35,163 nucleotides of DNA from Bacillota bacterium. Its GTDB lineage: Bacteria; Bacillota; Clostridia; Christensenellales; Aristaeellaceae. The position numbers were made by a program, and so were the translations under genes. The DNA is taken from contig JAEZTD010000250.1 in NCBI GenBank assembly GCA_023443705.1, positions 1 to 35,163 on the forward strand, read 5' to 3'. Shown piece after piece: positions 926 to 32,919 of the stretch; within the stretch, counting starts at the first letter, position 1; every line of letters begins with the position of its first letter. The notes under the pieces are model-generated. The model had not been told where the DNA came from, did no database searches, and was given only the letters and a program-made list of their open reading frames with translations.

Positions 926-955
926 GAAGCCCCCGGCAGAACTGCCGGGGGCTTC
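926..955. terminator. GC-rich hairpin between convergent pyk and the nitroreductase gene
   Basis: GAAGCCCCCGGCAgaacTGCCGGGGGCTTC is a perfect inverted repeat 11 nt after the pyk stop. There is no T-tract, because the 208-nt repeat abuts it directly. Confidence 0.6.
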
Positions 956-1160
956 AAGGCAACGAAAACCCCTGCGGTTGTTTCGATGCGAAGGAAGAAA
1001 TTCTGCGTGCGCCTGAAATCCTCACGGATATCCGGGCGGCGCACTGACCAAAGGTGTGGATAGCGCCACCAGTGTGCGTACTGGTGGCGCTATCCCGTTC
1101 CCGGCATACACGCCGCCGGGAACGATTGAAACCCTACCGATGCTTTGTTGATGGTCTGAA
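954..1160. repeat. copy 1 of a 208-nt structured interspersed element (TCAAGGCA...GATGGTCTGAA)
   Basis: It aligns end to end with 21753-21960, roughly nine-tenths identical by eye. It contains a 16-bp perfect hairpin (1058-1073/1080-1095), a 9-bp hairpin (1097-1105/1115-1123), a 7-bp helix (1007-1013/1038-1044) and a closing helix (1046-1053/1143-1156). Confidence 0.85.
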
Positions 1161-1193
1161 GCCCCGGCAGTTCTGCCGAGTGCTTAGCGTTTT

Positions 1194-2273: not shown

Positions 2274-4094
2274 ATGAAGAGAAGCGCGAAGCTGCTCGCG
2301 GCGCTGGCTGCGATCCTGGTTTTACTGGCCGAGGCAGGCGCGTCCGGGGCCATCAGGCCCGTACGCGCGGCGCTGGACGCGAGCCTTGTCTTGATCGACC
2401 TTGCCGATCGAAGCACCCACCAGCTTACCGGCAGCGTACTGCCGCAGGGCGCAAGCCAGAGCATGGCGTGGAAAAGCTACAACACCAAGGTGGCGACGGT
2501 TTCAAAGACGGGTCTGGTCACGGGGCGCGCCATCGGCACCACCGCCGTCGCGGTGCGTCCCGCCAGCCGGAGCAATTGGACGAAGGCCACCGTGCGGGTG
2601 ACCGACAGCCTCGCGCCCGACACCATCCGCCTGAGCGCTTCCCGGCTCAACCTTCTGATTGGCAGCACGGGCCTTCTCACGGCTGAGGCGGGGCCGGACA
2701 CCGCGATCACCACAATCCGGTGGTGGTCCAGCAAGACGAGCGTCGCACTCGTAACGCCGGACGGCCAGGTGCTGGCGCGCAAGGCCGGAACGGCCGTCGT
2801 CCGGGCGATTTCGACAAGAAACCCCGCGCTGTACGCCTCCGCGCTGGTGACGGTCAAAAACCTGCCGCCGCCGGTCAGGCTGACCATCACGCCCGCAAGC
2901 GCGAAGATTGAAAGAGGCGAAAAACTCCAGCTGTCGGTGGCTGTTTCGCCGCCGGAGGCAAACCTGTCTCTTCGCTGGTATACGAACAACCCCGCCGTCG
3001 CCACCGTCGGCAAAACAGGGCTCGTGAGCGCCAAGAAAGTCGGGAAATTCAAGGTCAAAGCAGTCTCGAGGATAAAGCCCACGGTTAAGCAGATCCGCTC
3101 CTACGAGGTCGTGGACACGAAAACGGTGACTGGCGTGGTCATCGAGAGCGACGAGAGCGTCCTGCTGGCCGGGGGAACGCTGCAGCTGCGGGCCGGCGTG
3201 CTGCCGCCCACCGCCTCCCAGGCGGTGTCGTGGACGAGCAGCAACCCCGCCGTTGCCACGGTGTCAGAAGCGGGGTTCGTCACCGCCGTATCCCTTGGCA
3301 GCACCACCGTCACCGCCGCGGCGAGCGGCAAGTACGCGAAGCAGCGCGTGGTGGTGATGGACGCGGCGCCCGTCACCGAACTGCCCGCACAGGTGACGAG
3401 CGCCGACGGCATCAGCCTGAACCTCGCAAAGATCGACGCGGTTCAGCGCTACGCCGTGGAACAAGTGGACGCACTCCGCGCCGCGGGCGTGATCCCAAAA
3501 TCGGAGGCGGACGCCAGAAAGCTCATCATCGTCCGGGCTTTCCGCATGGCGCGCTTCCCGTGGATGAGCGCGCGGAACGTGCGTTACTGGTCGGGCGACA
3601 GCCTGTACCAGAAAAATGTGGTATATTACGGCATCCCCTACACCCAGACGAACCGCGTCTACAATACGTCGAACATCGTAAGGTCCGGGGCGTTCAAGCT
3701 GCTCGGAGACGACGCCTTTCATACCGCCTACATGGTCGACAGGCGCTATCCGGGCAACGACTGCTCCTCGTTTGTGTCGATGAGCTACTGGGGGCTGGGC
3801 TCCAGCTACTCGTACCTGCGCTCCCGAAACATGCTGGATTCCTCGGTCTACAAAACCGTCGCGATGCGATCCAAGCCGACCGCCTACCTGAACCTGCGGC
3901 CGGGAGATTTCTTTGTCCGAAACGGGCATGTGGCGATGTTTCTGTACTACGCCAACAGCCTGAGAACCCGGGTCATGATCATTCAGCAGGGCGGGCGAAA
4001 CACCCTCAACACCGTGGGGCTGTTCCTCAAGCCCATCAGCTACTACAGCGCAGACTCGCGCTACATCGCGCGGCGGAAGCGCTCGTTCGCTTAA
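2274..4094 (+). CDS. secreted protein with repeated bacterial Ig-like (Big_2-type) domains and a C-terminal NlpC/P60-like Cys/His domain
   Basis: The signal peptide MKRSAKLLAALAAILVLLAEAGA starts at 2274. It is followed by repeated ..VATVSKTGLVTG.A.GT..V.. modules. The C-terminus carries NDCSSFVS...GDFFVRNGHVAMFLYY. The upstream part of the 744-aa ORF is Arg/Ala-rich GC-shadow sequence. Confidence 0.7.
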   Translation: MKRSAKLLAALAAILVLLAEAGASGAIRPVRAALDASLVLIDLADRSTHQLTGSVLPQGASQSMAWKSYNTKVATVSKTGLVTGRAIGTTAVAVRPASRSNWTKATVRVTDSLAPDTIRLSASRLNLLIGSTGLLTAEAGPDTAITTIRWWSSKTSVALVTPDGQVLARKAGTAVVRAISTRNPALYASALVTVKNLPPPVRLTITPASAKIERGEKLQLSVAVSPPEANLSLRWYTNNPAVATVGKTGLVSAKKVGKFKVKAVSRIKPTVKQIRSYEVVDTKTVTGVVIESDESVLLAGGTLQLRAGVLPPTASQAVSWTSSNPAVATVSEAGFVTAVSLGSTTVTAAASGKYAKQRVVVMDAAPVTELPAQVTSADGISLNLAKIDAVQRYAVEQVDALRAAGVIPKSEADARKLIIVRAFRMARFPWMSARNVRYWSGDSLYQKNVVYYGIPYTQTNRVYNTSNIVRSGAFKLLGDDAFHTAYMVDRRYPGNDCSSFVSMSYWGLGSSYSYLRSRNMLDSSVYKTVAMRSKPTAYLNLRPGDFFVRNGHVAMFLYYANSLRTRVMIIQQGGRNTLNTVGLFLKPISYYSADSRYIARRKRSFA

Positions 4095-8361: not shown

Positions 8362-10014
8362 TTATCCGATGGTCAGTTCGACCGGCACCTTGTAGTCAAA
8401 GCTCTTGCGGATGGCGGCGAGGATGTCGCCGTGGCCGTCCTTGAGGCTCATGGTGGCGGAAGAGGTGACGTCGGCGAGGTGGGTCTTGTCCTCATCGGAG
8501 AGGGCGTTGTATTTCGCCACATCCTGCTCATTGGAGGAATCGGCCTTCAGCGGACGGCCGTTGACGTCGGAGGTATACTTGGCGAACCAAGCGTCCACCT
8601 CGTCCACGGTCATGCCGACGAAGAGCTTCTGGAAGGCGTCCATCTCGTTCTGCCAGGTGGTGGTGTTCAGCTTGTAGCCTTCGCCGCGCTCACGCTTGGT
8701 CTTCCAGCCGGCGACGTCGGCCAGGAAGCTGTCGTCGGTGCTTTCGGAGACGGAGTCGACCTTCTCGTCGTGGTCGGCGTCCATGTTGTAGCCGCCCTGT
8801 CCCGGGTAGCCGCTGAAGTGAGGCATGGATTCGCCGTCGTAGTTGGGCGAGGCGACCTCCACCTGATCCACCTGGATGGCGGCGATGCGGCCCTCGGCGT
8901 CAAACAGCGTCACGGCGACGACATCGTTGAAGGAATAGACGGGGACTTCCTTGTCGTCCTTGCCGGGGCCGATGCGGCCGTTGTGGGACGCGCCCAGGCC
9001 AAAGCCTGTGGCGGACGTGGCCGTCAGCGGAACGCGGTTTTCATAGGCCTTGCGGATGGCGGCGAGGATGTCGCCGTGGCCGTCCTTGAGGCTCATGGTG
9101 GCGGAGGAGGTGACGTCGGCGAGGTGGGCCTTGTCCTCGTCGGAGAGGGCGTTGTACTTCGCCACGTCCTGCTCATTGGAGGAATCGGCTTTCAGCGGGC
9201 GGCCGTTGACGTCGGAGGTGTACTTGGCGAACCACGCGTCCACTTCGTCCACGGTCATGCCGACGAAGAGCTTCTGGAAGGCGTCCATCTCGTTCTGCCA
9301 GGTGGTGGTGTTGAGCTTGTAGCCTTCGCCGCGCTCGCGCTTGGTCTTCCAGGCGGCGATTTCGGCCAGGAAGCTGTCTTCGGTGTTCTCGGAGACGGAG
9401 TCAACCTTCTCATCGTGGTCGGCGTCCATGTTGTAGCCCGGCTGGCCCGGCAGGCCGCTCAGGTGGGGCATGGATTCTCCGTCGTAGTTGGGTGTGGCGA
9501 CCTCCAGCTGGTCGATGTTCAGGTGCAGGATCTTGCCTTCGCCGTCAAAGATCGCGCTGGCGTACACCTCGTTGAAGGAGTAGACCTGCACATCCTTGTC
9601 GTCCTTGCCGGGGCCGATGCGGCCATTGCTGACGATGCCGAGGCCCAGGTACGCGTCCGCAGCTTCGATGACGGCGGGCGCCTCGGCCGCTTCTGCTTCG
9701 GTGGTCAGCCCCAGCGCACTCGAAACAGCGGCCAGAATGGCCTTGCCGGTGTAGGTCGCACCGGAAACCACGTCCACTTCGACACCGTTCGCCTCGACGA
9801 TCTTCGCCGGCAGCCCTTCAAGCGCCAGCGTGCCGATGCCGTCTGTTTCCTTCGCGCCGGTTGCCTCGACGGAGACAATCTTGCCGTCCTCAACCGTCAC
9901 GGTCACCTCGACCGGGCCGCCGAAACCATCGGCGGTTCCGGTGAACACTTCGGCCTGCGCCGCGATGCTCACCATCAGAAGCAATGCGACCAGAATGGAA
10001 ACCAACCGCTTCAT
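8362..10014 (-). CDS. exported FMN-binding domain protein with two tandem copies of an uncharacterised ~215-aa domain
   Basis: The signal peptide is MKRLVSILVALLLMVSIAAQA. An FMN_bind-like segment follows (GFGGPVEVTVTVEDGKIVSVE...VDVVSGATYTGKAI). Two repeats of GRIGPGKDDK...NYDGESMPH...WKTKRERGEGYKLNTTTWQNEMDAF... come after it. Confidence 0.75.
   Translation of the reverse strand: MKRLVSILVALLLMVSIAAQAEVFTGTADGFGGPVEVTVTVEDGKIVSVEATGAKETDGIGTLALEGLPAKIVEANGVEVDVVSGATYTGKAILAAVSSALGLTTEAEAAEAPAVIEAADAYLGLGIVSNGRIGPGKDDKDVQVYSFNEVYASAIFDGEGKILHLNIDQLEVATPNYDGESMPHLSGLPGQPGYNMDADHDEKVDSVSENTEDSFLAEIAAWKTKRERGEGYKLNTTTWQNEMDAFQKLFVGMTVDEVDAWFAKYTSDVNGRPLKADSSNEQDVAKYNALSDEDKAHLADVTSSATMSLKDGHGDILAAIRKAYENRVPLTATSATGFGLGASHNGRIGPGKDDKEVPVYSFNDVVAVTLFDAEGRIAAIQVDQVEVASPNYDGESMPHFSGYPGQGGYNMDADHDEKVDSVSESTDDSFLADVAGWKTKRERGEGYKLNTTTWQNEMDAFQKLFVGMTVDEVDAWFAKYTSDVNGRPLKADSSNEQDVAKYNALSDEDKTHLADVTSSATMSLKDGHGDILAAIRKSFDYKVPVELTIG
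8404..9693. repeat. intragenic tandem duplication, 2 units of 645 bp (about 8404-9048 and 9049-9693)
   Basis: The shadow ORFs 8405..8677 and 9050..9322 differ at 3 of 90 residues. The first ~300 nt of each unit are nearly identical and the rest is clearly more diverged. Confidence 0.9.
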
Positions 10015-20427: not shown

Positions 20428-20527
20428 AAGCGGCTCGATGCGGCGTATAAACGCTCTCAAACGAAAATACAAGGGAAGCAATGAGTGGGCGTCATTTCGA
20501 TGGCATCCACTTTTATGTTAATGGGCA
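20428..20527. repeat. conserved block R1, copy a (copy b at 25030-25130)
   Basis: AAGCGGCTCGATGCGGCGTATAAACGCTCTCAAACGAAAATACAAGG...GTGGGCGTCATTTCGATGGCATCCAC aligns with 25030-25130 with few mismatches. Confidence 0.8.
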
Positions 20528-20784: not shown

Positions 20785-20886
20785 GAGGGGTATTTCCTTC
20801 TTCCTTGTTCCGATCCACACCCTGAGAGAGGGTAGCATGAAGGCATATCGCTCTATATGCGAATGGTTCCTATTCATGTGCAAAAC
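20785..20886. repeat. conserved block R2, copy a (copy b at 26435-26528)
   Basis: The shared sequence is TTCCTTGTTCCG.TCC.CAC..GAGAG.GG.AGCATG...CATATCG...ATG.TTCCTATT.A..GCACAAA. Confidence 0.7.
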
Positions 20887-21448: not shown

Positions 21449-21613
21449 ATTATCTATATATTTTTCTGTTTTACGCATATGTTGCGCAATTAATTGTTGG
21501 TATTGAGATGAAAGTGTGATTTTTATTTTTACCTAACCGCCCCCTTCCTCAAACATCAACACAGGTGTGACTTGGAGATTGTAGCCATTCTCCCAAATGG
21601 GTAAAAACGGAGA

Positions 21614-21752
21614 TAAGTGGTCATTTTCAAGCTGGTTGTGGTATTTATTATGGTCAAGCGCAGTTGAGGTAAACCGGCCTGATTGCGCAATTTGTGCAAG
21701 GAGAACAAAGGAAACCCCAATATATAATGAAAACCCACCGCTGTTCGGTGGG
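21614..21752. repeat. copy of the tRNA-proximal end block of the integrative element (paralog of 28359-28497)
   Basis: AAGTGGTCATTTT.AAGCTGGTTGTGGTATTTATT.TGGTCAAGCGC...TGTGCAAGGAGAACAAAG...AAAACCCACCG..GTT..GGTGGG is shared with 28359-28497. Confidence 0.8.
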
Positions 21753-21960
21753 TCAAGGCATCGAAAAACCCTATGGTTTTTTCGATGCGAAGGAAGGAAA
21801 CCTGCGTGCGCCTGAAATCCTCACGGATTTCCGAGCGGCGCACTGACCAAAGGTATAAATAGCGCCACCAATATGCGTACTGGTGGCGCTATCCCGTTCC
21901 CGGCGTACACGCCGCCGGGAACGATTGAAACCCCTACCGAGACTTTGTTGATGGTCTGAA
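21753..21960. repeat. copy 2 of the 208-nt structured interspersed element
   Basis: It aligns with 954-1160. It is flanked by an exact 18-nt direct repeat, CCACCGCTGTTCGGTGGG, at 21735-21752 and 21961-21978. Confidence 0.85.
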
Positions 21961-21983
21961 CCACCGCTGTTCGGTGGGTTTGT

Positions 21984-22033
21984 TGGTGGAGCATAGGGGA
22001 TTTGAACCTATGACCTCTACGATGCGAAAGTGT
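21984..22033 (-). other. displaced 3' fragment of tRNA-Ala (att repeat at the distal end of the integrated element)
   Basis: It matches 28503-28552 (acceptor 3' strand through the anticodon loop), with exact blocks of 19 and 18 nt. Three mismatches break the T-stem. Similarity ends at about 22033. Confidence 0.8.
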
Positions 22034-22125
22034 ACTCATAGTGTTTTGGTGTGTTTCGCCGTCCCGAAATACCCCTGAAATACAAGGGTTTGCCGATTGC
22101 CAAGTATGCCTAGTGTTGCTTCGTG

Positions 22126-22155
22126 TTGTGGTAATTGTGGTCAGAATTGTGGTCA
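22126..22155 (+). promoter_or_regulatory. three direct TTGTGGT(C)A repeats, candidate integrase arm-type binding sites
   Basis: TTGTGGTA is at 22126-22133, and TTGTGGTCA is at 22135-22143 and 22147-22155. The same motif pair recurs at 28381-28401 and 21636-21656, each about 100 nt from a tRNA-derived core. Confidence 0.5.
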
Positions 22156-22569
22156 AAATCCCGGGCTGATCGGGGTGTGTTTAGCCCTCCATGTCAAGCT
22201 GCCAATCATCAAAGAACATCTGTTTTCATTGAAAAAAATCGCATCAGCAGTAAACACCGGCATTAGTCGGAAACGTTTCCGTAAGCTATATTTGATCGAT
22301 CAACGATTGTCAGCGCATGTAAGGGGGGCTGCCTATAAACGGGCCGCTCTGATACATGCTATCTTCCTGCTTGCATCCCATCGAGCCGCACCACGCACAG
22401 ACCCTGAGGGGAGGGGACAATTACCACCCTATGCGCGCGGCTTGCGTCCGTCCCCAGAAGGTGAGATGCATGCAGAGACATGAGAAAGCCCCCCCTGGGG
22501 GAGGGCGAAGTGGGTCCTACTTTCCGCAAATGCAAGAGGCTGTCGCGATTTTTTTTGGCACCCCACCGG

Positions 22570-23715
22570 TCAAAAATGCTGTAGGGCTTCAAGGGCTTTC
22601 TTCTTGGTTTCCATGCTGCTATGAACGTAGGTCTGAAGCGTGAAGGCGACTTTGCTATGACCGATCAATTCACCAACCGTGCGAACGTCAACCCCGGCGC
22701 GGATCAGGTTTGTAGCGAATGAATGCCGGAGCGCATGGAGGCCCCGATGCTTCAATCCTGCCCGTTTCAAAGCCGCTGTGAGCGTCCTTCTGAGGTTGGC
22801 CGGGTCTTTGATCGCCCCGGATTCGGCAGAGAACACATACCCGTTATCCTGCCATAGTTCACCGGCTGCAAGCTTCCGCTCTGCATATAGCTTGCGTTGC
22901 GTCTGGAGAATTGCGGAGGTTGCCGGAACAATCGGGATTTCGCGCTTCCCTGCTTTCGACTTGGGCGCAGCGATGGACAGGGCGGTTTTGCGCTCGTCTT
23001 CCTTGGCATCGAAAGCCTTGACACGAACCGCTCCCTGCCGTACTGTGAAATGGTCTGCGTCTACATCTGCCCAGCGCAGCGCACAGAGTTCCGAAACGCG
23101 GAGGCCGGTATTGAGGATGAACCGCAGACAACGCCCATTGTCCGTATCGGGCAGCGATTCCATGAGCTTCTTTTGCTCGTCAGGCTCAAAGAAATCAACT
23201 TCGCGCTGTTCCATCTTGGGTTGCATCACGCCATCAGCCGGGTTCTTTGCAATGAGGCCGTTAATGACCGCCTGCTTGAGCGCGGCTTTGAGGACTTCAA
23301 TCATCTTCCGAACCGTTGCGGGCTGCTTGTCCTTGGACTGCTCATTGATAAAGCGCTGGATCTGCTCCACCCGCAGCTTTTGAAGCTGAACCTTTCCCAT
23401 GGAAGGGATGAGGTAGGTCTTGATATTTGAATCGTACACCGTTGCGGTCGATTCCCTGTGCGAGGGCCTGAAATACACTTCAAACCACGAATTCAGCCAG
23501 CCCGAAACCGTCATCTTGTCCGGCGCAATATACAGCCCTTCGTCGAGCTTCTTTAAAACGTCGCGCAGCTTTATCCGCACTTCGTCCTGGGTGGCAGCAT
23601 ATACGCTCCGCCTTATCAGGGTTCCGTTCGGCTTCCGTCCGCAGCTGTAAATGCCTTCCCAGCGCCCATCGGGCCGCTGACGAATGCAACCCTCACTGTT
23701 CGCTCTCTTGGACAT
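22570..23715 (-). CDS. int: tyrosine-type site-specific integrase
   Basis: The catalytic region reads HALRHSFATNLIRAGVDVRTVGELIGHSKVAFTLQTYVH, and the N-terminus is SAM-like. ATG at 23713-23715 lies 6 nt after AAAGGAGG. Confidence 0.9.
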   Translation of the reverse strand: MSKRANSEGCIRQRPDGRWEGIYSCGRKPNGTLIRRSVYAATQDEVRIKLRDVLKKLDEGLYIAPDKMTVSGWLNSWFEVYFRPSHRESTATVYDSNIKTYLIPSMGKVQLQKLRVEQIQRFINEQSKDKQPATVRKMIEVLKAALKQAVINGLIAKNPADGVMQPKMEQREVDFFEPDEQKKLMESLPDTDNGRCLRFILNTGLRVSELCALRWADVDADHFTVRQGAVRVKAFDAKEDERKTALSIAAPKSKAGKREIPIVPATSAILQTQRKLYAERKLAAGELWQDNGYVFSAESGAIKDPANLRRTLTAALKRAGLKHRGLHALRHSFATNLIRAGVDVRTVGELIGHSKVAFTLQTYVHSSMETKKKALEALQHF

Positions 23716-23884
23716 TGTGGGCCTCCTTTTCAACGCTGTTCGATAATGCTGCCTTTCGCATCGAAATAATCTCATCTCGTACCAACTTCAAACCAGCAGG
23801 AACATGAAGAAGCAACGCCTGTGCTACGCTGTCGCCATCTAGGACTGAGTTCTTAGTGCTATAGCCCTCTGTAACCCCTCCCAT
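23693..23884 (-). CDS. possible small HTH/excisionase-like protein overlapping the int start (weak)
   Basis: The 63-aa ORF overlaps the int start by 23 nt. The segment SVAQALLLHVPAGLKLVRDEI is loosely HTH-like. No convincing RBS is present. Confidence 0.25.
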   Translation of the reverse strand: MGGVTEGYSTKNSVLDGDSVAQALLLHVPAGLKLVRDEIISMRKAALSNSVEKEAHNVQESEQ

Positions 23885-23919
23885 TCGAGATCGAGATTCG
23901 GGATCGGCTGCAATACGGC

Positions 23920-24108
23920 TTGCCAGTTGAGAAGTGGGAATGGTACAAGACCTCCGATCTTAAGCCATACATCCCGGGCTATGCGACCGGGGAGCAGATA
24001 GGTCGCGTGCTTCGAAAGCTGGCGAAAGAGGACTCGCGTATTGTAATCAAGACACCGGGAAACATTCGTCACTACCTGCTTCCGTTGGTGCGGTCTTCCT
24101 TCATGTAG
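23920..24108 (+). CDS. possible small winged-helix-like protein, or the C-terminal remnant of a larger (primase-like) gene
   Basis: It has a TTG start and no RBS, and the frame is open only from 23875. The pattern ..GEQIGRVLRKLAKEDSRIVIKTPGNIRHYLLP resembles C-terminal tails of P4-type primases. The ORF ends exactly at the iteron cluster. Confidence 0.3.
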   Translation: MPVEKWEWYKTSDLKPYIPGYATGEQIGRVLRKLAKEDSRIVIKTPGNIRHYLLPLVRSSFM

Positions 24109-24115
24109 GGGGGGA

Positions 24116-24359
24116 GTTAATGGGGTTAAGGCGGAGTTAATGCGGAAATCGCGGGTGCCTTAACCCCGAAAACCCTTGTATTCATTGGGTTTCCAGACCG
24201 TAGTTAAGGTTGTTAATGCACATTCTAATGAGCTGTAAGAAGTTGGTGTATAAAAAATAAACATAGGGAAATGTGCCTTAACTGCATTAACAAGACCAAT
24301 AAAAAGCCTTGATTTATAAGGGTTTGTGGCGTGATTCGGGGTTAATGCGGTGCCTTAAC
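24116..24359. repeat. cluster of ten GTTAAKGC motifs in both orientations around an AT-rich core (iteron/operator array)
   Basis: Forward sites start at 24116, 24125, 24136, 24203, 24212 and 24341. Reverse sites (GCMTTAAC) start at 24157, 24275, 24284 and 24352. An AT-rich stretch (GTATAAAAAATAAACATAG) lies at 24248-24266. Confidence 0.8.
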
Positions 24360-24429
24360 ATCCTTCACTTCCATGTCGCCCGCGCCCGTGCGACCGACAC
24401 GACCAAATCAAAAGTGAACAAGGAGCAAC

Positions 24430-24708
24430 ATGCGACGGAAAATATCAGTAGGCGTCCGGGATCTCGCTGCCGTTCAGCGCATCTTGGAGGGTGCGGAGAT
24501 CGAGCAGTTCCTTACTGGCCCGGCAGTTGACTTTGGTTGGGTGTGTGGCCGGACGCGGATAGGGCTAATTCTTCGACGGCCTAACGGTTCAAGACTGCTA
24601 TTGAGCTTGTTTGCTGGGGGAGTGATCGAAAGCCCTTTGCTCGGAAACATCCACAGGATTCCACCCATAGGCAAAATACAGGAGGACAAACCCAATGAGG
24701 CAGATTGA
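24430..24708 (+). CDS. hypothetical protein (92 aa)
   Basis: AAGGAG lies just upstream of the ATG at 24430. The ORF overlaps the next ORF by 14 nt. No family was recognised. Confidence 0.55.
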   Translation: MRRKISVGVRDLAAVQRILEGAEIEQFLTGPAVDFGWVCGRTRIGLILRRPNGSRLLLSLFAGGVIESPLLGNIHRIPPIGKIQEDKPNEAD

Positions 24709-25012
24709 TACGAAGTTGAACATTCTGGATTACTTTGATTCGCTTACATGGCGGGAGGTGCCTGACCTCAAGGCGCTTCGCGAGATGTTGCGCGGATGCA
24801 CCATCGAAGAAACTGAACAAGCTTGTACGGAGTTCGATGACGAGCAGGGCATCCCACTCTATGCAGCGTTGTTTTTGAAGGTTGCCGCTCCTGACGGTCG
24901 GCGTATTGCGGTTCAACTCCTTGCAGAAGACCCCATTGGGCTTTCGGGTTGGCTCGTTGCTTCGGTCGCTGATATAGGCAATCAGAGCGGCGAAGGAACG
25001 CCCCCTTCCTGA
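24695..25012 (+). CDS. hypothetical acidic protein (105 aa)
   Basis: AGGAGG lies 9 nt upstream of the ATG at 24695. A diverged, truncated counterpart appears to exist at about 20230-20404, just before R1a. Confidence 0.55.
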   Translation: MRQIDTKLNILDYFDSLTWREVPDLKALREMLRGCTIEETEQACTEFDDEQGIPLYAALFLKVAAPDGRRIAVQLLAEDPIGLSGWLVASVADIGNQSGEGTPPS

Positions 25013-25029
25013 TACACGCCCCAGCCCGC

Positions 25030-25130
25030 AAAACGGCTCTGTGCGGCTCACAAACGCTCTCAAACGAAAATACAAGGACAGTCTCTTGTGGGCGTCATTT
25101 CGATGGCGTCCACGCTCATGTTATTGGGCA
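25030..25130. repeat. conserved block R1, copy b
   Basis: It aligns with 20428-20527. It retains the GTG start and first ~13 codons of the 92-aa membrane-protein frame (VGVISMASTLMLLG), then diverges and stops at 25175-25177. Confidence 0.8.
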
Positions 25131-25336
25131 ATAAGAATTACATACAGAATAACCGGCAAAGTGAGCCAAGCCCTTGACAACGGCACGGAAAAGCAGTACA
25201 TTTGAACTGATAACTATATGCACAGATTTGGTTAACTTGATGAAAATCCAAATGGCAGACCGCCTCTAAGTAGACTTAGAAGCTGAATGATGTGTTTTAC
25301 TCCGTGCAAGGTGCGTTGAACATTGGAGGAATAACA

Positions 25337-26287
25337 ATGTGCTATTTGCGAAAGGTCATTACTGGTTTCGCTTTCCTTGCCGCGCTTATTTTCCCTTTTG
25401 TTTCCTTTGGCGATAGTATTCTCATTCCTGTAGATTTGGGATGCACGCCAAATCAAATGCTTGAATATATATATAGTCATTCGGACTGTGACGCTGTGAA
25501 GTTGAGTGAGTATGATTTTCATGTTGATGTGAGAGGCGAATCTGGACACTCGATAATGGCTTTAAAGAACGGCTTTTTTCAGGCATATATGATTAATGAG
25601 AAGACGAAAAACATCCATACGTTGAATATTGGTTTCGATAAAGAAGCGGACGTTGATAAGATAACGGCTTCTGCCAACATTTTCATGGATACGGTAAGGA
25701 TTGTTATGGAGAGGATCGGGAGATTGTCCGATTATTCATCTCTCGTTGACAGGATCGGAACTGAGAATATAAACTCATATTTCACCGATATTCAGACAAG
25801 CGTTTCGTACAACGGTGTCACTTATATTTTTGGTTCGGACATAAAAAGTGTGTCGCTGTTTGTGAGCGTGGATGATATAGATTCAGCGAAAATGAGTGTG
25901 GACAATGAAGTTGATTGGCAAGACGCAAGGACAGTATTAGCGGCAATGGAGAAAACCGGTGAAATTTCAGCGGGAGGAAAGAAAATCTATAATAAGTACA
26001 CCGACATAGTAGATAAAACAATAAGCGGAGGATCCGATATCTATTTCTATGATAAATTCACAGGCGAACACGCATATAACCGAATTACCGTTTATTACAG
26101 TACTGCAAGAGCTATTGAGGTTGAAAATAGCATCAATAGCCTATCGTACTATTTCCCTGAAACGATGCCAAGGTGTTATAGATTTAAAAATTGTGTACTC
26201 GTGTTGTCTTCAGAAATTGGCTCATATATGGAGCTGAAATATGCCGTTGCCTTTTATAAGGCTTTCCAAACACAGCAAGATAACTAA
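25337..26287 (+). CDS. secreted hypothetical protein (316 aa), AT-rich cargo gene
   Basis: GGAGG lies 7 nt before the ATG at 25337. The signal peptide is MCYLRKVITGFAFLAALIFPFVSFG. This is the most AT-rich long ORF in the window. No family was recognised. Confidence 0.7.
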   Translation: MCYLRKVITGFAFLAALIFPFVSFGDSILIPVDLGCTPNQMLEYIYSHSDCDAVKLSEYDFHVDVRGESGHSIMALKNGFFQAYMINEKTKNIHTLNIGFDKEADVDKITASANIFMDTVRIVMERIGRLSDYSSLVDRIGTENINSYFTDIQTSVSYNGVTYIFGSDIKSVSLFVSVDDIDSAKMSVDNEVDWQDARTVLAAMEKTGEISAGGKKIYNKYTDIVDKTISGGSDIYFYDKFTGEHAYNRITVYYSTARAIEVENSINSLSYYFPETMPRCYRFKNCVLVLSSEIGSYMELKYAVAFYKAFQTQQDN

Positions 26288-26434
26288 TCCAATTTACCCC
26301 CAGGTTCTGCGGCTCTCATCGGATAAGACTATTAATGTCGATCTTTCAAACACCTCCAGCCGTTTGCCGGGCGTTTGGACGGACGCAGACTGATTGTCCA
26401 CAGTTTAGGTCGAATTAATGCGGATGGGAAAGGC

Positions 26435-26528
26435 GGGGTTTCCTCCTTCCTTGTTCCGTTCCCCACAGAGAGGGGGGAGCATGCCTCATATCGGCACTTA
26501 ATGAGAATGATTCCTATTTACGCACAAA
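26435..26528. repeat. conserved block R2, copy b
   Basis: It aligns with 20785-20886. It includes a small hairpin with one compensatory change: CCCT/AGGG in copy a versus CCCC/GGGG in copy b. Confidence 0.7.
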
Positions 26529-26562
26529 GGCCCACCATGCAGGCGGCTATTCTTATTCCATG

Positions 26563-26585
26563 CATCTAGTTTTAGAAACTAGATG
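26563..26585. terminator. perfect 10-bp inverted repeat between convergent cargo genes (bidirectional terminator or operator)
   Basis: The sequence is CATCTAGTTT-tag-AAACTAGATG. Confidence 0.45.
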
Positions 26586-26701
26586 GAGCTGGGGCTGCTG
26601 TTGGCTCTATTTGCGAACAAGAAGCACTTGAGTATGTACAATTTATTGAGCTGTTTCCCCGAACAGCCGCGGCGTGTGACCTTCCTGAAATTGCTGGAGG
26701 C

Positions 26702-27112
26702 TTATTCCCCGGAGCCCAAGCGCTCGTCCTTTGCTTTCAGAGCTGTCCCTATTTGAATTATATCATTGTCAACACAAAGCAAGCCGTTTTCTAGGTTGTA
26801 GTAAACGGTGCGAGGGTTGTTGGGGCCCAAGAAAATAAAGTCGTTTGGGCCTTCTGATTGTGTCATAGGCTTGAGTGTGACGCGAAGTTCGACGCCAATA
26901 CATCTGAAATCTGATTGGAGTACTCTGTTATACCTTTCTAAGCATTCTGTCGCAATTCTTTTGCAGTCCTCCTCATTCGGTAATTGATCGGCATTTATAA
27001 GCGTATCATCGTAAAAATATGCCATTGTTCCCCACGAATCGCGGTTGTTATCAAAAATGTCAATCCTTACATTCCATAGATCTCTTTCCTTGCTACTTAG
27101 TGGCTTTATCAT
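26702..27112 (-). CDS. hypothetical protein (136 aa) co-transcribed with the XRE regulator
   Basis: GGAGGAG lies 6 nt before the ATG at 27110-27112. The start overlaps the last 20 nt of the XRE gene. No family or catalytic motif was recognised. Confidence 0.65.
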   Translation of the reverse strand: MIKPLSSKERDLWNVRIDIFDNNRDSWGTMAYFYDDTLINADQLPNEEDCKRIATECLERYNRVLQSDFRCIGVELRVTLKPMTQSEGPNDFIFLGPNNPRTVYYNLENGLLCVDNDIIQIGTALKAKDERLGSGE

Positions 27113-27329
27113 GATCTTCTCCTCCATCTTCCACGTACTCCATGATATCGCCTGGTTGACAGCCAAGTGCGCGACACAGGTTGTTGATCGTACGTGTATC
27201 CACATATCCTTCATTTTTCATAAGCTTCGCATAAGTGGCCTGACCCACTAGACCGGCTTTCCGGATTTTAATGTTAGTCCATCCTTGTGCGCGTAGCAAT
27301 TCATGTAGCTTATTAAATACAATAGCCAT
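27093..27329 (-). CDS. XRE-family (Cro/CI-type) helix-turn-helix regulator
   Basis: In this 78-aa protein, ..IRKAGLVGQATYAKLMKNEGYVDTRTINNLCRALGCQPGDIMEY is a typical short XRE HTH. GGAGGATAAAA precedes the ATG. Confidence 0.85.
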   Translation of the reverse strand: MAIVFNKLHELLRAQGWTNIKIRKAGLVGQATYAKLMKNEGYVDTRTINNLCRALGCQPGDIMEYVEDGGEDHDKATK

Positions 27330-27361
27330 TTTTATCCTCCGTCATCGTTCTTTCCCTCAAC

Positions 27362-27390
27362 AGTATAACAGAAAGCGCACACCATGTCTA
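27362..27390 (-). promoter_or_regulatory. candidate promoter of the XRE/136-aa operon
   Basis: On the minus strand: TAGACA (27385-27390), 17-nt spacer, TATACT (27362-27367). Confidence 0.45.
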
Positions 27391-27432
27391 GTGCAATAGC
27401 CCCACATGCAATACACTAAAGATTGTGCAATT
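27391..27432. promoter_or_regulatory. three direct RTGCAATW repeats between the divergent promoters (candidate XRE operators)
   Basis: GTGCAATA is at 27391-27398, ATGCAATA at 27406-27413 and GTGCAATT at 27425-27432. Confidence 0.45.
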
Positions 27433-27440
27433 ATCCGGTA

Positions 27441-27469
27441 TTGAGATTACACTAGATATGGTGTATAAT
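27441..27469 (+). promoter_or_regulatory. strong sigma-A-type promoter with extended -10, driving the 89-aa/101-aa genes
   Basis: TTGAGA (27441-27446), 17-nt spacer ending in TGT, then TATAAT (27464-27469). Confidence 0.55.
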
Positions 27470-27597
27470 GTTGACGGAGGTTGAGGGAAGCACACAAGAA
27501 GCCCAACGGGAACCGGATGCGAAAGGCAGTGCCAATAAGCCCGAGTAAGCAGAAGCCGCCCCGCCCCAACCGATCAACACGAAGGAGGTTTTCAACA

Positions 27598-27867
27598 GTG
27601 TCACAGCATGAGATCGTCGCCACTGTCACCGAGCTTCAGGAGTTGCGCCGGATGCAGGAAGAACTGGAGGCCGCTATCGAGGCCGCACAGGACAAGATCA
27701 AGGCCCACATGGGCGAGGTCGAGGAACTGACCGCCGGGGGGTTCAAAGTCACATGGAAGGCCGTCACCAGCAACCGCCTGGACGCCACCGCATTGAAAAA
27801 GGCCCTGCCGGAAGTGGCGGAGCGGTTCACCAAGACCACCACCGCGCGGCGCTTCATGGTAGCGTAA
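27598..27867 (+). CDS. hypothetical coiled-coil protein (89 aa)
   Basis: GAAGGAGG lies 9 nt before the GTG at 27598. The sequence TELQELRRMQEELEAAIEAAQDKIKAHMG...ALKKALPEVAERFTK looks like small proteins I recall from clostridial mobile elements; this is unverified. Confidence 0.6.
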   Translation: MSQHEIVATVTELQELRRMQEELEAAIEAAQDKIKAHMGEVEELTAGGFKVTWKAVTSNRLDATALKKALPEVAERFTKTTTARRFMVA

Positions 27868-27987
27868 AAGCCGCCCACCTTCCACAGCGACGGCTTTCGC
27901 AGGAACTTACCAACCGAATCGGCTGGAGGCTCACACAGAGTATAGCGCGGGGCCTCCAGCCGGTCAAGTACGAAAGGAGAGGTTTTC

Positions 27988-28293
27988 ATGAAACTGAATC
28001 CCGTCAACACGTCGAACCTCGTGTATGTTCTTCGAGATGCCCTTCTGTACCACAGCGTGTATTGCGCTCGCCCGGAAGACGTGGAAACGCCGGATAAAGC
28101 AATCTGCAGAACCGAAAAAGCCTGCAGCGAGATCATGAAGCGGGTCGAGTGCGCCGATTTGCAGGAGGAAATTGAAAACGCATACGCGGAGTGTCTTGCA
28201 GCTTATGAATGCTCCGGCTTTCAGCGTGGTATCCAGGCGGGGGCGCAGCTCATGCTTGAACTGCTAGGTAAGGGACCGTACAAGGAAGGCTAA
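27988..28293 (+). CDS. hypothetical protein (101 aa)
   Basis: AAGGAGAGG lies before the ATG at 27988. A terminator follows the stop. Confidence 0.6.
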   Translation: MKLNPVNTSNLVYVLRDALLYHSVYCARPEDVETPDKAICRTEKACSEIMKRVECADLQEEIENAYAECLAAYECSGFQRGIQAGAQLMLELLGKGPYKEG

Positions 28294-28315
28294 GCCACCG
28301 GAACCGAGCCGACAG

Positions 28316-28340
28316 CGGGGCGTAGATCGCCCCGTTTTTC
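28316..28340 (+). terminator. Rho-independent terminator of the 89/101-aa operon
   Basis: CGGGGCG-tagat-CGCCCCG is followed by TTTTTC. Confidence 0.75.
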
Positions 28341-28358
28341 TATGCTCAAAACCGGGGA

Positions 28359-28497
28359 AAAGTGGTCATTTTGAAGCTGGTTGTGGTATTTATTGTGGTC
28401 AAGCGCGGCTGGGGAGAATCGGTCAGATAGTGTGTTTTGTGCAAGGAGAACAAAGAAAGCTCGAATACAAAGCGAAAACCCACCGTGTTTTGGTGGG
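28359..28497. repeat. tRNA-proximal end block of E1 (paralog of 21614-21752), including arm-type repeats at 28362-28401
   Basis: It aligns with 21614-21752. It contains GTGGTCA (28362-28368), TTGTGGTA (28381-28388) and TTGTGGTCA (28393-28401). Confidence 0.8.
28471..28497 (-). terminator. Rho-independent terminator of tRNA-Ala (unoccupied homolog of the site carrying repeat copy 2)
   Basis: The minus-strand RNA reads CCCACC-aaaacac-GGUGGG followed by UUUUCGCUUU. Confidence 0.75.
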
Positions 28498-28502
28498 TTT
28501 GA

Positions 28503-28578
28503 TGGTGGAGCATAGGGGATTCGAACCCCTGACCTCTACGATGCGAACGTAGCGCGCTACCAGCTGTGCTAATGCCCC
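28503..28578 (-). tRNA. tRNA-Ala (anticodon CGC), CCA encoded
   Basis: The manual cloverleaf is GGGGCAT/ATGCTCC acceptor with G3-U70, anticodon stem CTACG/CGTAG, loop TTCGCAT, and T-arm AGGGG-TTCGAAT-CCCCT. The D-stem has one mismatch. Length is 76 nt. Confidence 0.9.
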
Positions 28579-32546: not shown

Positions 32547-32818
32547 TCATACTACCGCGTTCTAATCATATACCATTTGTGTGCGCCCGGAGCATTTCGC
32601 TTCGGGCGTTTAGGCTATAAACAGATTCTTTGCACAAACCAAATCGTCCCCGGTGGCGTGGAAATTGGACGCGCGATGTGCGTCCCTACGAAGGACGCCG
32701 AGCAGCGGCGCCACCCAATCCCTGTCGTTCCTTCAAATCGTTCCCGGCGGCGTGTACGGCGGTAACGGTTCTCGTAGCCAGTGCGCACACCGGCGGAGGA
32801 AACGATTCCTTTAAGTAA

Positions 32819-32851
32819 GGAAGACTGAACCCCAAAGTGGTTCAGTCTTCC
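32819..32851. terminator. 13-bp perfect hairpin downstream of the isomerase/kinase operon
   Basis: GGAAGACTGAACC-ccaaagt-GGTTCAGTCTTCC lies about 70 nt after the stop at 32920. No clear U-tract is present. Confidence 0.45.
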
Positions 32852-32919
32852 GAAGTATCCCGTTCCCACGTGTCAAAATGTCCGCAGGAGATTTGGACGC
32901 AAGCGCGTCAGCGCAATCG

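Follow-up and report, generated by a model that had tools for sequence, protein, structure and literature searches.

Why does a densely paired repeat lie beside terminator hairpins at two unrelated places of one contig, and what kind of element is it? The question arises from the 35,163 nucleotides analysed here (hereafter, the window), in which an earlier note had described copies of a repeat of about 208 nt at positions 954-1160 and 21753-21960, and had left it unassigned. The two stretches are the same unit: they align end to end with 91% identity. Their outer flanks are unrelated, which is in line with the view of the note that this is an interspersed repeat and not a segmental duplication.

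Copies in the window and in related genomes

Copy 1 covers positions 955-1158 of the plus strand (204 nt, 5'-CAAGGC...GGTCTG-3', 173.9 bits with the covariance model). Its left and right inverted repeats lie at about 955-968 and 1145-1158, and it has four internal hairpins, P1 to P4, at 959-989, 1007-1044, 1058-1093, and 1096-1126. Copy 2 (21754-21960, plus strand, 183.1 bits) reads 5'-CAAGGC...GGTCTG(AA)-3'. A third copy, diverged and with the same P1-P4 architecture, came to light when we scanned for repeats and searched with a profile, and its position was set by the covariance model (32725-32902, minus strand, 124.4 bits). It starts 18 nt past the stop codon of a co-oriented fucose-isomerase-like gene and still has a decayed 3' tail. 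Its P4 (32736-32768) is invariant, and the invariant 33-nt hairpin that it has in common with other copies reads CCGTT.CCG.CGTACACGCCGCCGGGAACGATT. No target duplication was detectable in the flanks of copy 3. We searched the window and 8 related loci with Rfam 15, at gathering and permissive thresholds, and found no family for the unit. The window matched only tRNA(-Ala), with nothing but sub-threshold chance hits around copy 1, and the 8 related loci had no match in Rfam, including its models of HEARO, of the IS605-orfB motif, and of group II introns.

Relatives of the unit were searched in several ways. A 20-mer from the invariant hairpin P4 was looked up in contigs representing one genome per species and gave 23 loci. 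Around 20 of these are genuine, all from MAGs of Christensenellales-like Clostridia. The loci L007, L019, and L021, which come from Rhodocyclaceae, Anaerolineae, and Vicinamibacterales, were treated as chance occurrences, since they match only a 20-24-mer within coding-like sequence. A degenerate pattern of the P4 hairpin then revealed 46 further metagenome loci, about 20 of them on separate contigs of the metagenome Ga0268263. A profile search of the recovered loci with nhmmer resulted in about 70 element copies, whose flanking genes are unrelated in function. The loci of Ga0268263 have 38 copies per 184 kb, 16 of the 38 not having been used for ascertainment, and the density in one metagenome is about one copy per 5-10 kb of the loci sampled. 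The element is small (about 205 nt, or about 254 nt in a related lineage), non-coding, present in many copies, and dispersed among unrelated adjoining genes. It encodes no protein, and its substitutions track base pairing, not codons. A BLASTN search of the unit in plasmid and phage collections gave no match, and neither did two pattern scans of viral contigs.

The nitroreductase protein of the window is also found on contigs of the NCBI MAGs GCA_023414615.1 and GCA_023437355.1 and of several ENA assemblies. These contigs have the gene order of the window and a spacer of 278 nt between pyk and the nitroreductase gene. Their base-by-base comparison gave many mismatches, probably from a coordinate offset, and the covariance model recovered copy 1 at 173.9 bits in both of the contigs searched (L072 and L077). 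Two short-read contigs terminate exactly within the conserved hairpin. This is a typical repeat-induced assembly break; short-read assemblies of these uncultured gut and digester Clostridia are broken at this hairpin.

Element ends, target duplications, and empty sites

In full-length copies (long forms), the 3' tail repeats the 5' end imperfectly and in inverted orientation. The long forms end in 5'-CAG/CAA...CTG-3', and their terminal inverted repeats are 12-16 nt long and imperfect, with 3 central mismatches. The ends of the family read 5'-CAGAGCGTTGA.../...TCAACAGCCTG-3', in general form 5'-CAG(A/R)GCGTTGA...TCAACAGCCTG-3'. They are CAAGGCATCGA...TTGATGGTCTG in the subfamily of the window and CAGCTTGTCAA...TTGACAGTCTG in the second lineage, the one of about 254 nt. 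The terminal complementarity is 78%, compared with 74.7% in shuffles (1 of 500 shuffles is as high), and two end positions change together between subfamilies.

Direct repeats of 16-33 nt in the flanks bracket 15-18 long forms from at least 6 genomes (the window, OH_CBB_177, OH_PDB_46, Ga0268263, DSTMC04003, and GCA_040768845/GCA_029974035). Their scores range from 11 to 33, with shuffled maxima of at most 12. The direct orientation scores above the inverted one in 13 copies, and a few copies with symmetric loops are indistinguishable. Additional duplications were found at L044 (24 nt, second lineage) and at L079/L084 (about 24 nt). The duplicated sequence is different at each site, but always a GC-rich palindrome of the intrinsic-terminator type located directly downstream of a gene. 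The association with hairpins that the earlier note had seen in the window holds for the family. The length of these duplications is far beyond the 2-14 bp that are usual for MITEs.

When the empty sites are reconstructed, the ends of the duplication lie 0-3 nt from the ends of the palindrome in 7 of the 11 perfect-match cases. In 3 of the other 4, the palindrome or exact-match search was misled by an indel or an imperfect stem. At copy 2, the two offsets are 4 and 2 nt. At L043, the 16 duplicated nucleotides are the perfect part of a hairpin in which, from our reading of the flanks, 5 more pairs are possible if a G-T pair is allowed, which is easier to reconcile with a DNA cruciform than with an RNA hairpin. 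Several long forms (L018, L032, L028) have the hairpin on the downstream side only. Most duplications are 100% identical, while elements in one genome differ by about 11%, and these insertions are therefore recent.

Both long copies of the window show the duplication. At copy 2, the 19-nt palindrome of the tRNA-Ala terminator, CCACCGCTGTTCGGTGGGT (21735-21753, plus strand), is repeated exactly on the other side of the element (21961-21979, plus strand). Terminator scoring identifies the left hairpin copy as a minus-strand terminator and the right one as a plus-strand terminator. At copy 1, the left duplication (927-954, plus strand) is made of the pyk-side palindrome GCCCCCGGCAGAACTGCCGGGGGC (929-952) with 2 nt on either side, and the right one, AAGCCCCGGCAGTTCTGCCGAGTGCTT (1159-1185, plus strand), is degenerate. 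The far flank does repeat the pyk-side hairpin, as had been noticed earlier, with the 4-nt loop reverse-complemented (GAAC versus GTTC). The two flank hairpins score 12 in direct and 18 in inverted orientation, and copy 1 is the only clear inverted-loop case among about 17. A secondary flip of the loop, e.g., by strand switching inside the palindrome, is our preferred, though unproven, explanation of this case.

Empty sites are available for all three copies. In a related species (L078, the orthologous empty site of copy 1), whose nitroreductase is 88% identical to that of the window, the spacer between pyk and the nitroreductase gene is 47 nt long and has one hairpin, GCCCCCGGCAGATTCTGCCGGGGGC, and no element. 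The empty counterpart of copy 2 is a paralogous region of the window itself: positions 28348-28550 match the two flanks of copy 2 (21603-21753 and 21961-22031). This region takes in the 3' part of a tRNA-Ala that is intact (28503-28578, minus strand), followed by its terminator and a further 130 nt. The hairpin is present there once, as CCACCGTGTTTTGGTGGGT (28480-28498, plus strand), directly downstream of the tRNA-Ala, and the filled site has in addition the element and a second, identical 19-nt copy of the hairpin. Copy 3 is missing downstream of a 94%-identical orthologue (L083), where an ordinary terminator is found instead, and also at more distant orthologues. Elsewhere in the family, L002 and L037 are an orthologous pair of filled and empty sites. 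The palindrome is single at empty sites and occurs once on each side at filled sites. We also searched for excision footprints in the form of tandem hairpins and found none; the single candidate was a collagen-like coding repeat.

We regard the unit as a non-autonomous transposon (MITE) because terminal inverted repeats, target duplications, empty sites, and high copy number come together with a lack of coding capacity. Since the duplication is the whole terminator palindrome, of variable length, the points of strand transfer appear to be set by the structure of the target. In our view, the unit is probably a non-autonomous, MITE-like DNA transposon, which finds palindromic terminators by their structure and leaves the entire palindrome duplicated. 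It would be a variant of the known MITE type with an unusual landing site, one chosen by the shape of DNA. Points that speak against this reading are the inverted loop at copy 1, the long forms with a hairpin on the downstream side only, the lack of excision footprints, the lack of a transposase or parent element in the DNA searched, and, as set out below, the co-orientation with upstream genes, the four conserved internal hairpins, and the deletion of the stem-loop by IS1272.

The earlier note had remarked that no transposase, reverse transcriptase, or nuclease gene adjoins the repeat, and we find the same. An all-against-all clustering of the flank ORFs gave no recurrent or multi-copy protein. 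Within the window and the related loci (645 kb), the full-length autonomous relative with the same termini that the note had suggested looking for did not turn up, and no transposase with these ends was seen. Fuzzy searches revealed no parent element, whether they looked for solitary terminal repeats at distances of 1-5 kb or for direct hairpin repeats at distances of 0.3-5 kb. A 4.5-kb pair at L039 was rejected as such a parent, as it brackets housekeeping tRNA-synthetase genes and consists of two separate element remnants. No IS1182-family transposase was seen in the recovered loci, and an exact-protein look-up of an integrase returned no record. Since neither a transposase nor a full-length parent with these ends was found, we infer that the element is mobilised in trans.

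Internal hairpins, orientation, and rival explanations

On either strand, the region of copy 1 folds much better than its dinucleotide shuffles do, with z-scores of -5.8 and -6.0. We aligned 41 members of the family and analysed 54 pairs across P1, P2 (with its inner helix), P3, and P4. Among the cells of these pairs, 90.8% are paired, compared with 80.2% when partners are shuffled and at most 48% when they are slid. Changes on both sides are found in 31 of the 54 pairs, and none of 500 shuffles reaches any of the observed measures. The four internal hairpins are thus shown to be kept up by compensatory change. They correspond to most of the pairing drawn in the earlier note: its 5' hairpin is P1, with compensatory changes over the 41 members, and covariation supports its 7-bp helix (1007-1013/1038-1044) with the inner helix as P2, its 16-bp hairpin as P3, and its 9-bp hairpin as P4 (9-11 bp). 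The closing helix of the note (1046-1053/1143-1156) has to be abandoned: it is 72.6% paired, against 72.3% in shuffles (247 of 500 as high), and shows no covariation. Four deeply conserved internal hairpins are atypical for MITEs.

Such hairpins raise the possibility that the unit is first of all a functional structured RNA, i.e., a module of 3' UTRs or intercistronic regions, or an sRNA that the downstream hairpin terminates. Its copies would be kept because the RNA fold serves the expression of host genes (by protecting mRNA 3' ends, by processing, or by binding proteins), with mobility being secondary. The abundance of compensatory change in the four hairpins and the strong conservation of loop and junction sequences speak for it, and so does the persistence of the fold in diverged forms without detectable target duplications. 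The balance of mismatches does not. The earlier note had argued for selection on a minus-strand RNA, given that three substitutions in the 16-bp helix of copy 2 would be A-C mismatches on the plus strand and G-U pairs on the minus strand. Across the family, the argument does not hold: the plus-strand cells have 43 G-U and 39 A-C, and no bias is found in any helix, in any divergence class, or in the most diverged copies. This symmetry is what one expects of palindromes acting at the level of DNA, or of template switching that corrects palindromes, unlike RNA under structural selection. Given the equal frequency of G-T and A-C mismatches, we tentatively suggest that the hairpins act at the DNA level rather than as a stable RNA. 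They could be sites of recognition for the transposase or of the cruciform, or could be kept by palindrome-correcting template switching. If the element is transcribed, the downstream terminators and the upstream genes point to the plus strand as the sense strand.

The genomic context also has to be weighed here. The nearest upstream gene is on the strand of the element for 43 of 52 copies (p = 2e-6), and in contexts of tandem genes 22 copies are co-oriented against 6. By our own count, co-orientation holds without exception for the 16 long forms in which the called upstream gene ends less than 100 nt away. Copies in opposite orientations within single loci, including copies 1 and 3 of the window, each follow their own upstream gene. 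For this reason, we reject the replication strand as the cause of orientation, which instead follows transcription or the side of the terminator on which the T-tract lies. The co-orientation may result from an integration machinery that reads the T-tract, or else from selection on the transcript. Diverged "short" forms keep P1-P4, and their tail and duplication are unrecognisable. They typically start 0-50 nt past a same-strand stop codon, and several lie directly before the ribosome-binding site of the next gene. Some of them, at least, are old long forms, since copy 3 retains a decayed tail.

A role as RNA would account for copies lying 0-60 nt past a same-strand stop codon, many directly before the next ribosome-binding site, for an orientation that follows local transcription and not replication, for the plus-strand terminators found after many copies, and for relatives of the element upstream of rsmH in four MAGs. 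On the other hand, the unit has no Rfam family, the flanking genes are functionally unrelated, and transposition as the way of its spread is evident from the inverted repeats at its ends, from the target duplications, and from the empty sites. We therefore consider it unlikely that RNA function is primary, and prefer the DNA transposon, which may have an additional role at the RNA level.

A retroelement of the SINE type would fit some of the same observations. In this case, a structured transcript would be reverse-transcribed and inserted by target priming at nicked terminator hairpins, giving duplications of variable length, in line with the range of 16-33 nt, the co-orientation with transcription, and the dense structure. 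However, the terminal inverted repeats (5'-CAG...CTG-3') covary between subfamilies and the duplication ends follow the palindrome ends precisely. Moreover, the unit has neither an A-rich nor any other tail at its 3' end, no reverse transcriptase lies nearby, and there is no series of 5' truncations, all of which makes a retroelement very improbable. Finally, the hairpin association, a size within the range of 150-250 nt, and dense secondary structure might suggest a remnant or guide-RNA module of an element that seeks hairpins or terminators, be it a class C group II intron, an IS200/IS605 end with its omega RNA, or the bridge RNA of IS110/IS1111, but these elements lack long target duplications and terminal inverted repeats, both present here, no TnpA/TnpB, DEDD recombinase, or intron reverse transcriptase is adjacent in any of about 70 loci, and Rfam has no match to HEARO, IS605-orfB motifs, or group II introns, so this explanation is largely refuted and barely credible.

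Proposed mechanism and comparison with known systems

If the unit is a structure-targeting DNA transposon, a transposase provided in trans would read the shape of the target, an extruded cruciform or hairpin, and not its sequence. The two 3' ends of the element would be joined to the two 5' feet of the palindrome, and gap repair would then copy everything between the feet, duplicating the palindrome. On the upstream side of the element, a hairpin would remain for the gene, while the copy bearing the T-tract would terminate the extended transcript. The insertion would therefore be nearly neutral, allowing a high copy number. From a symmetric attack on a cruciform, one would not expect the elements to be so strongly co-oriented with their upstream genes. 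One can also join these readings into a single one, which we find doubtful as a whole. It holds that a terminator cruciform, read purely by structure, is attacked at both feet, in a mode of integration so far undemonstrated for any mobile element, where a palindrome of any length becomes the duplication. The hairpins of the element would be modules of recognition or synapsis, possibly recruiting a junction-specific enzyme of the host instead of a dedicated transposase, and older copies would persist as selected intercistronic modules that follow transcription. In practical terms, many 3' UTRs and spacers between cistrons gain about 200 nt of structured sequence from the element, which is relevant to annotation and to the reading of transcript ends.

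The precedents that the earlier note had brought up (group IIC introns, IS200/IS605, and IS110) do not suit an element with terminal inverted repeats and whole-hairpin duplications. Class C group II introns resemble it in inserting next to intrinsic terminator stem-loops. However, they are ribozymes (domains I-VI) with a reverse transcriptase, exceed 600 nt, are detectable with Rfam, and make no target duplication, and the element has none of these traits: it has no Rfam intron match, measures about 205 nt, and duplicates the hairpin. IS200/IS605 elements insert 3' of a tetra- or pentanucleotide, have no inverted repeats or target duplication, and are associated with TnpA, TnpB, or IscB. An IS200/IS605 PATE or a TnpB/IscB omega RNA was accordingly rejected, given that the unit has inverted repeats and long duplications, that no such genes accompany it, and that Rfam has no HEARO or IS605-orfB match for it. 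A bridge or seek RNA of IS110/IS1111 is encoded beside a DEDD recombinase gene, in elements that have neither inverted repeats nor long duplications. It was rejected as well, since inverted repeats and duplications are present and no DEDD recombinase is adjacent in any locus.

Classical MITEs (Correia/NEMIS, ERIC, RUP, and bcr1; see also PMC10969869) are like the element in being short, non-coding, and high-copy, with inverted repeats and target duplications. They also fold stably and are in many cases transcribed together with genes, from a 3' UTR or an intergenic position. They differ from it in their fixed duplications of 2-9 bp at targets defined by sequence, as opposed to 16-33 bp at targets defined by structure. 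They are also usually one long imperfect palindrome, whereas the interior of the element consists of four independent covarying hairpins. Among DDE elements, IS231 and its non-autonomous derivatives MIC231 (IS4 family) prefer the target GGG-N5-CCC, a small palindrome inside a duplication of 10-12 bp. Their duplication has a fixed length and follows a sequence consensus, while the element duplicates whole terminators of variable length. The duplication of CRISPR repeats and the integration of casposons can be likened to the present case by analogy only, in that a palindrome is duplicated by a two-sided attack. Cas1-Cas2 and casposons make two staggered attacks flanking a palindromic sequence of about 30 bp, which is then duplicated. 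For Cas1-Cas2, the length is set by a protein ruler at a sequence-specific repeat, unlike the variable palindromes of the element.

The closest comparison, one that the earlier note had not considered, is with IS1272/TnSha1, a DDE insertion sequence of the IS1182 family in staphylococci, which targets terminator hairpins with no specificity for primary sequence and deletes or replaces the stem-loop without target duplication (PMC4923244, PMC5678879). Likened by features only, both elements hit DNA hairpins, mostly terminators just downstream of genes. However, IS1272 is autonomous, has 1.9 kb, inserts in both orientations, and removes the stem-loop, whereas the element is non-coding, has about 205 nt, belongs to an orientation-biased family, and duplicates the entire palindrome. 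An outcome of the IS1272 type, with the stem-loop deleted and no duplication, was accordingly rejected for this family. For the IS1182 family, ISfinder gives direct repeats ranging from 0 to 60 bp, and some other members may thus behave unlike IS1272. A "pathway b" has been hypothesised, and not observed, in which the cruciform is attacked at its 5' feet and the stem-loop would be duplicated in full (PMC5678879). From our analysis, the present family looks like the outcome of that pathway. It provides many natural, sequence-resolved cases, with matched empty sites, of an outcome so far hypothesised, in which the entire terminator stem-loop is duplicated. Structure-directed target choice becomes directly testable as a result, and the duplication of the stem-loop stands as the duplicative counterpart of its deletion by IS1272.

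Copies and their surroundings in other loci

Among the loci from metagenomes and metagenome-assembled genomes (MAGs) that were compared with the window, second-lineage relatives of the element lie immediately 5' of the rsmH start codon, in a 5'-leader position, in four cases (L012, L014, L020, and L023, from rumen and gut MAGs). One copy (L037 11071-11176) stops after the second internal hairpin, P2, where unrelated sequence of higher AT content takes over and an ORF then begins at the end of this short locus. This truncation may reflect a nested insertion. In L079 and L084, around 200 nt of structured-looking sequence (2905-3100) separate the stop codon of a fucose-isomerase-like gene from a duplication-flanked long-form copy, and this stretch may represent another repeat family. 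The metagenome richest in copies of the element, Ga0268263, also provided a contig with a CRISPR array (repeat GTCGCGCCCTTCGCGGGCGCGTGGCTTGAAAC, L059 1-1060, Ga0268263_1007752).

In two independent short-read assemblies the contigs end (L070 2262 and L071 1647) inside copy 1, exactly within its conserved P4 hairpin. The assemblies of these genomes are fragmented by the repeat.

Other repeats in the window and the tRNA-Ala island

A long ORF of the window contains a 645-nt tandem duplication (8383-9645), in which 8383-8682 and 9028-9327 are 93% identical and 8890-9000 matches 9535-9645 more weakly. The duplicated unit probably corresponds to a protein domain that occurs repeatedly.

The tRNA-Ala(cgc) is the site of an island bearing an integrase (21980-28578). 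The intact tRNA gene is on the minus strand (28503-28578), its 3' half is duplicated at 21980-22031, and the tyrosine integrase is encoded at 22570-23775 (minus strand). Unusually, about 150 nt past the tRNA are duplicated too, with 80% identity (21603-21753 and 28348-28498). Two further direct repeats of 80% identity are shared between the DNA to the left of copy 2 and the island interior (20428-20527 with 25031-25130, and 20793-20831 with 26439-26477), and these may reflect tandem or related integrated elements.

The P4 hairpin outside ordinary copies

Lone additional 3' strands of P4 (..GTCGCCGGGAACGA..) recur 40-90 nt 3' of diverged copies. Solitary strands are found in the window (32640-32665), twice in L006 (7761-7800 and about 2540-2600), and in L032 (about 1290-1310) and L065 (about 2800-2830). 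Their recurrence suggests a module that is repeated independently, e.g. a putative binding site. A Candidatus Fimadaptatus MAG carries tandem units of about 215 nt (L008 2690-3170), each ending in the conserved hairpin's 3' strand (GGGTACACGCCGCCGGGAACGATTGAAG); this array is a satellite-like derivative. On the minus strand of L065 (3650-3700), a P4-like hairpin (CAGCGTTCCCGGCGCGTGCGCCGGGAACGCTG) lies between A- and T-runs. This L065 hairpin has the look of a genuine bidirectional terminator, and a captured terminator may be the origin of the family's conserved hairpin.
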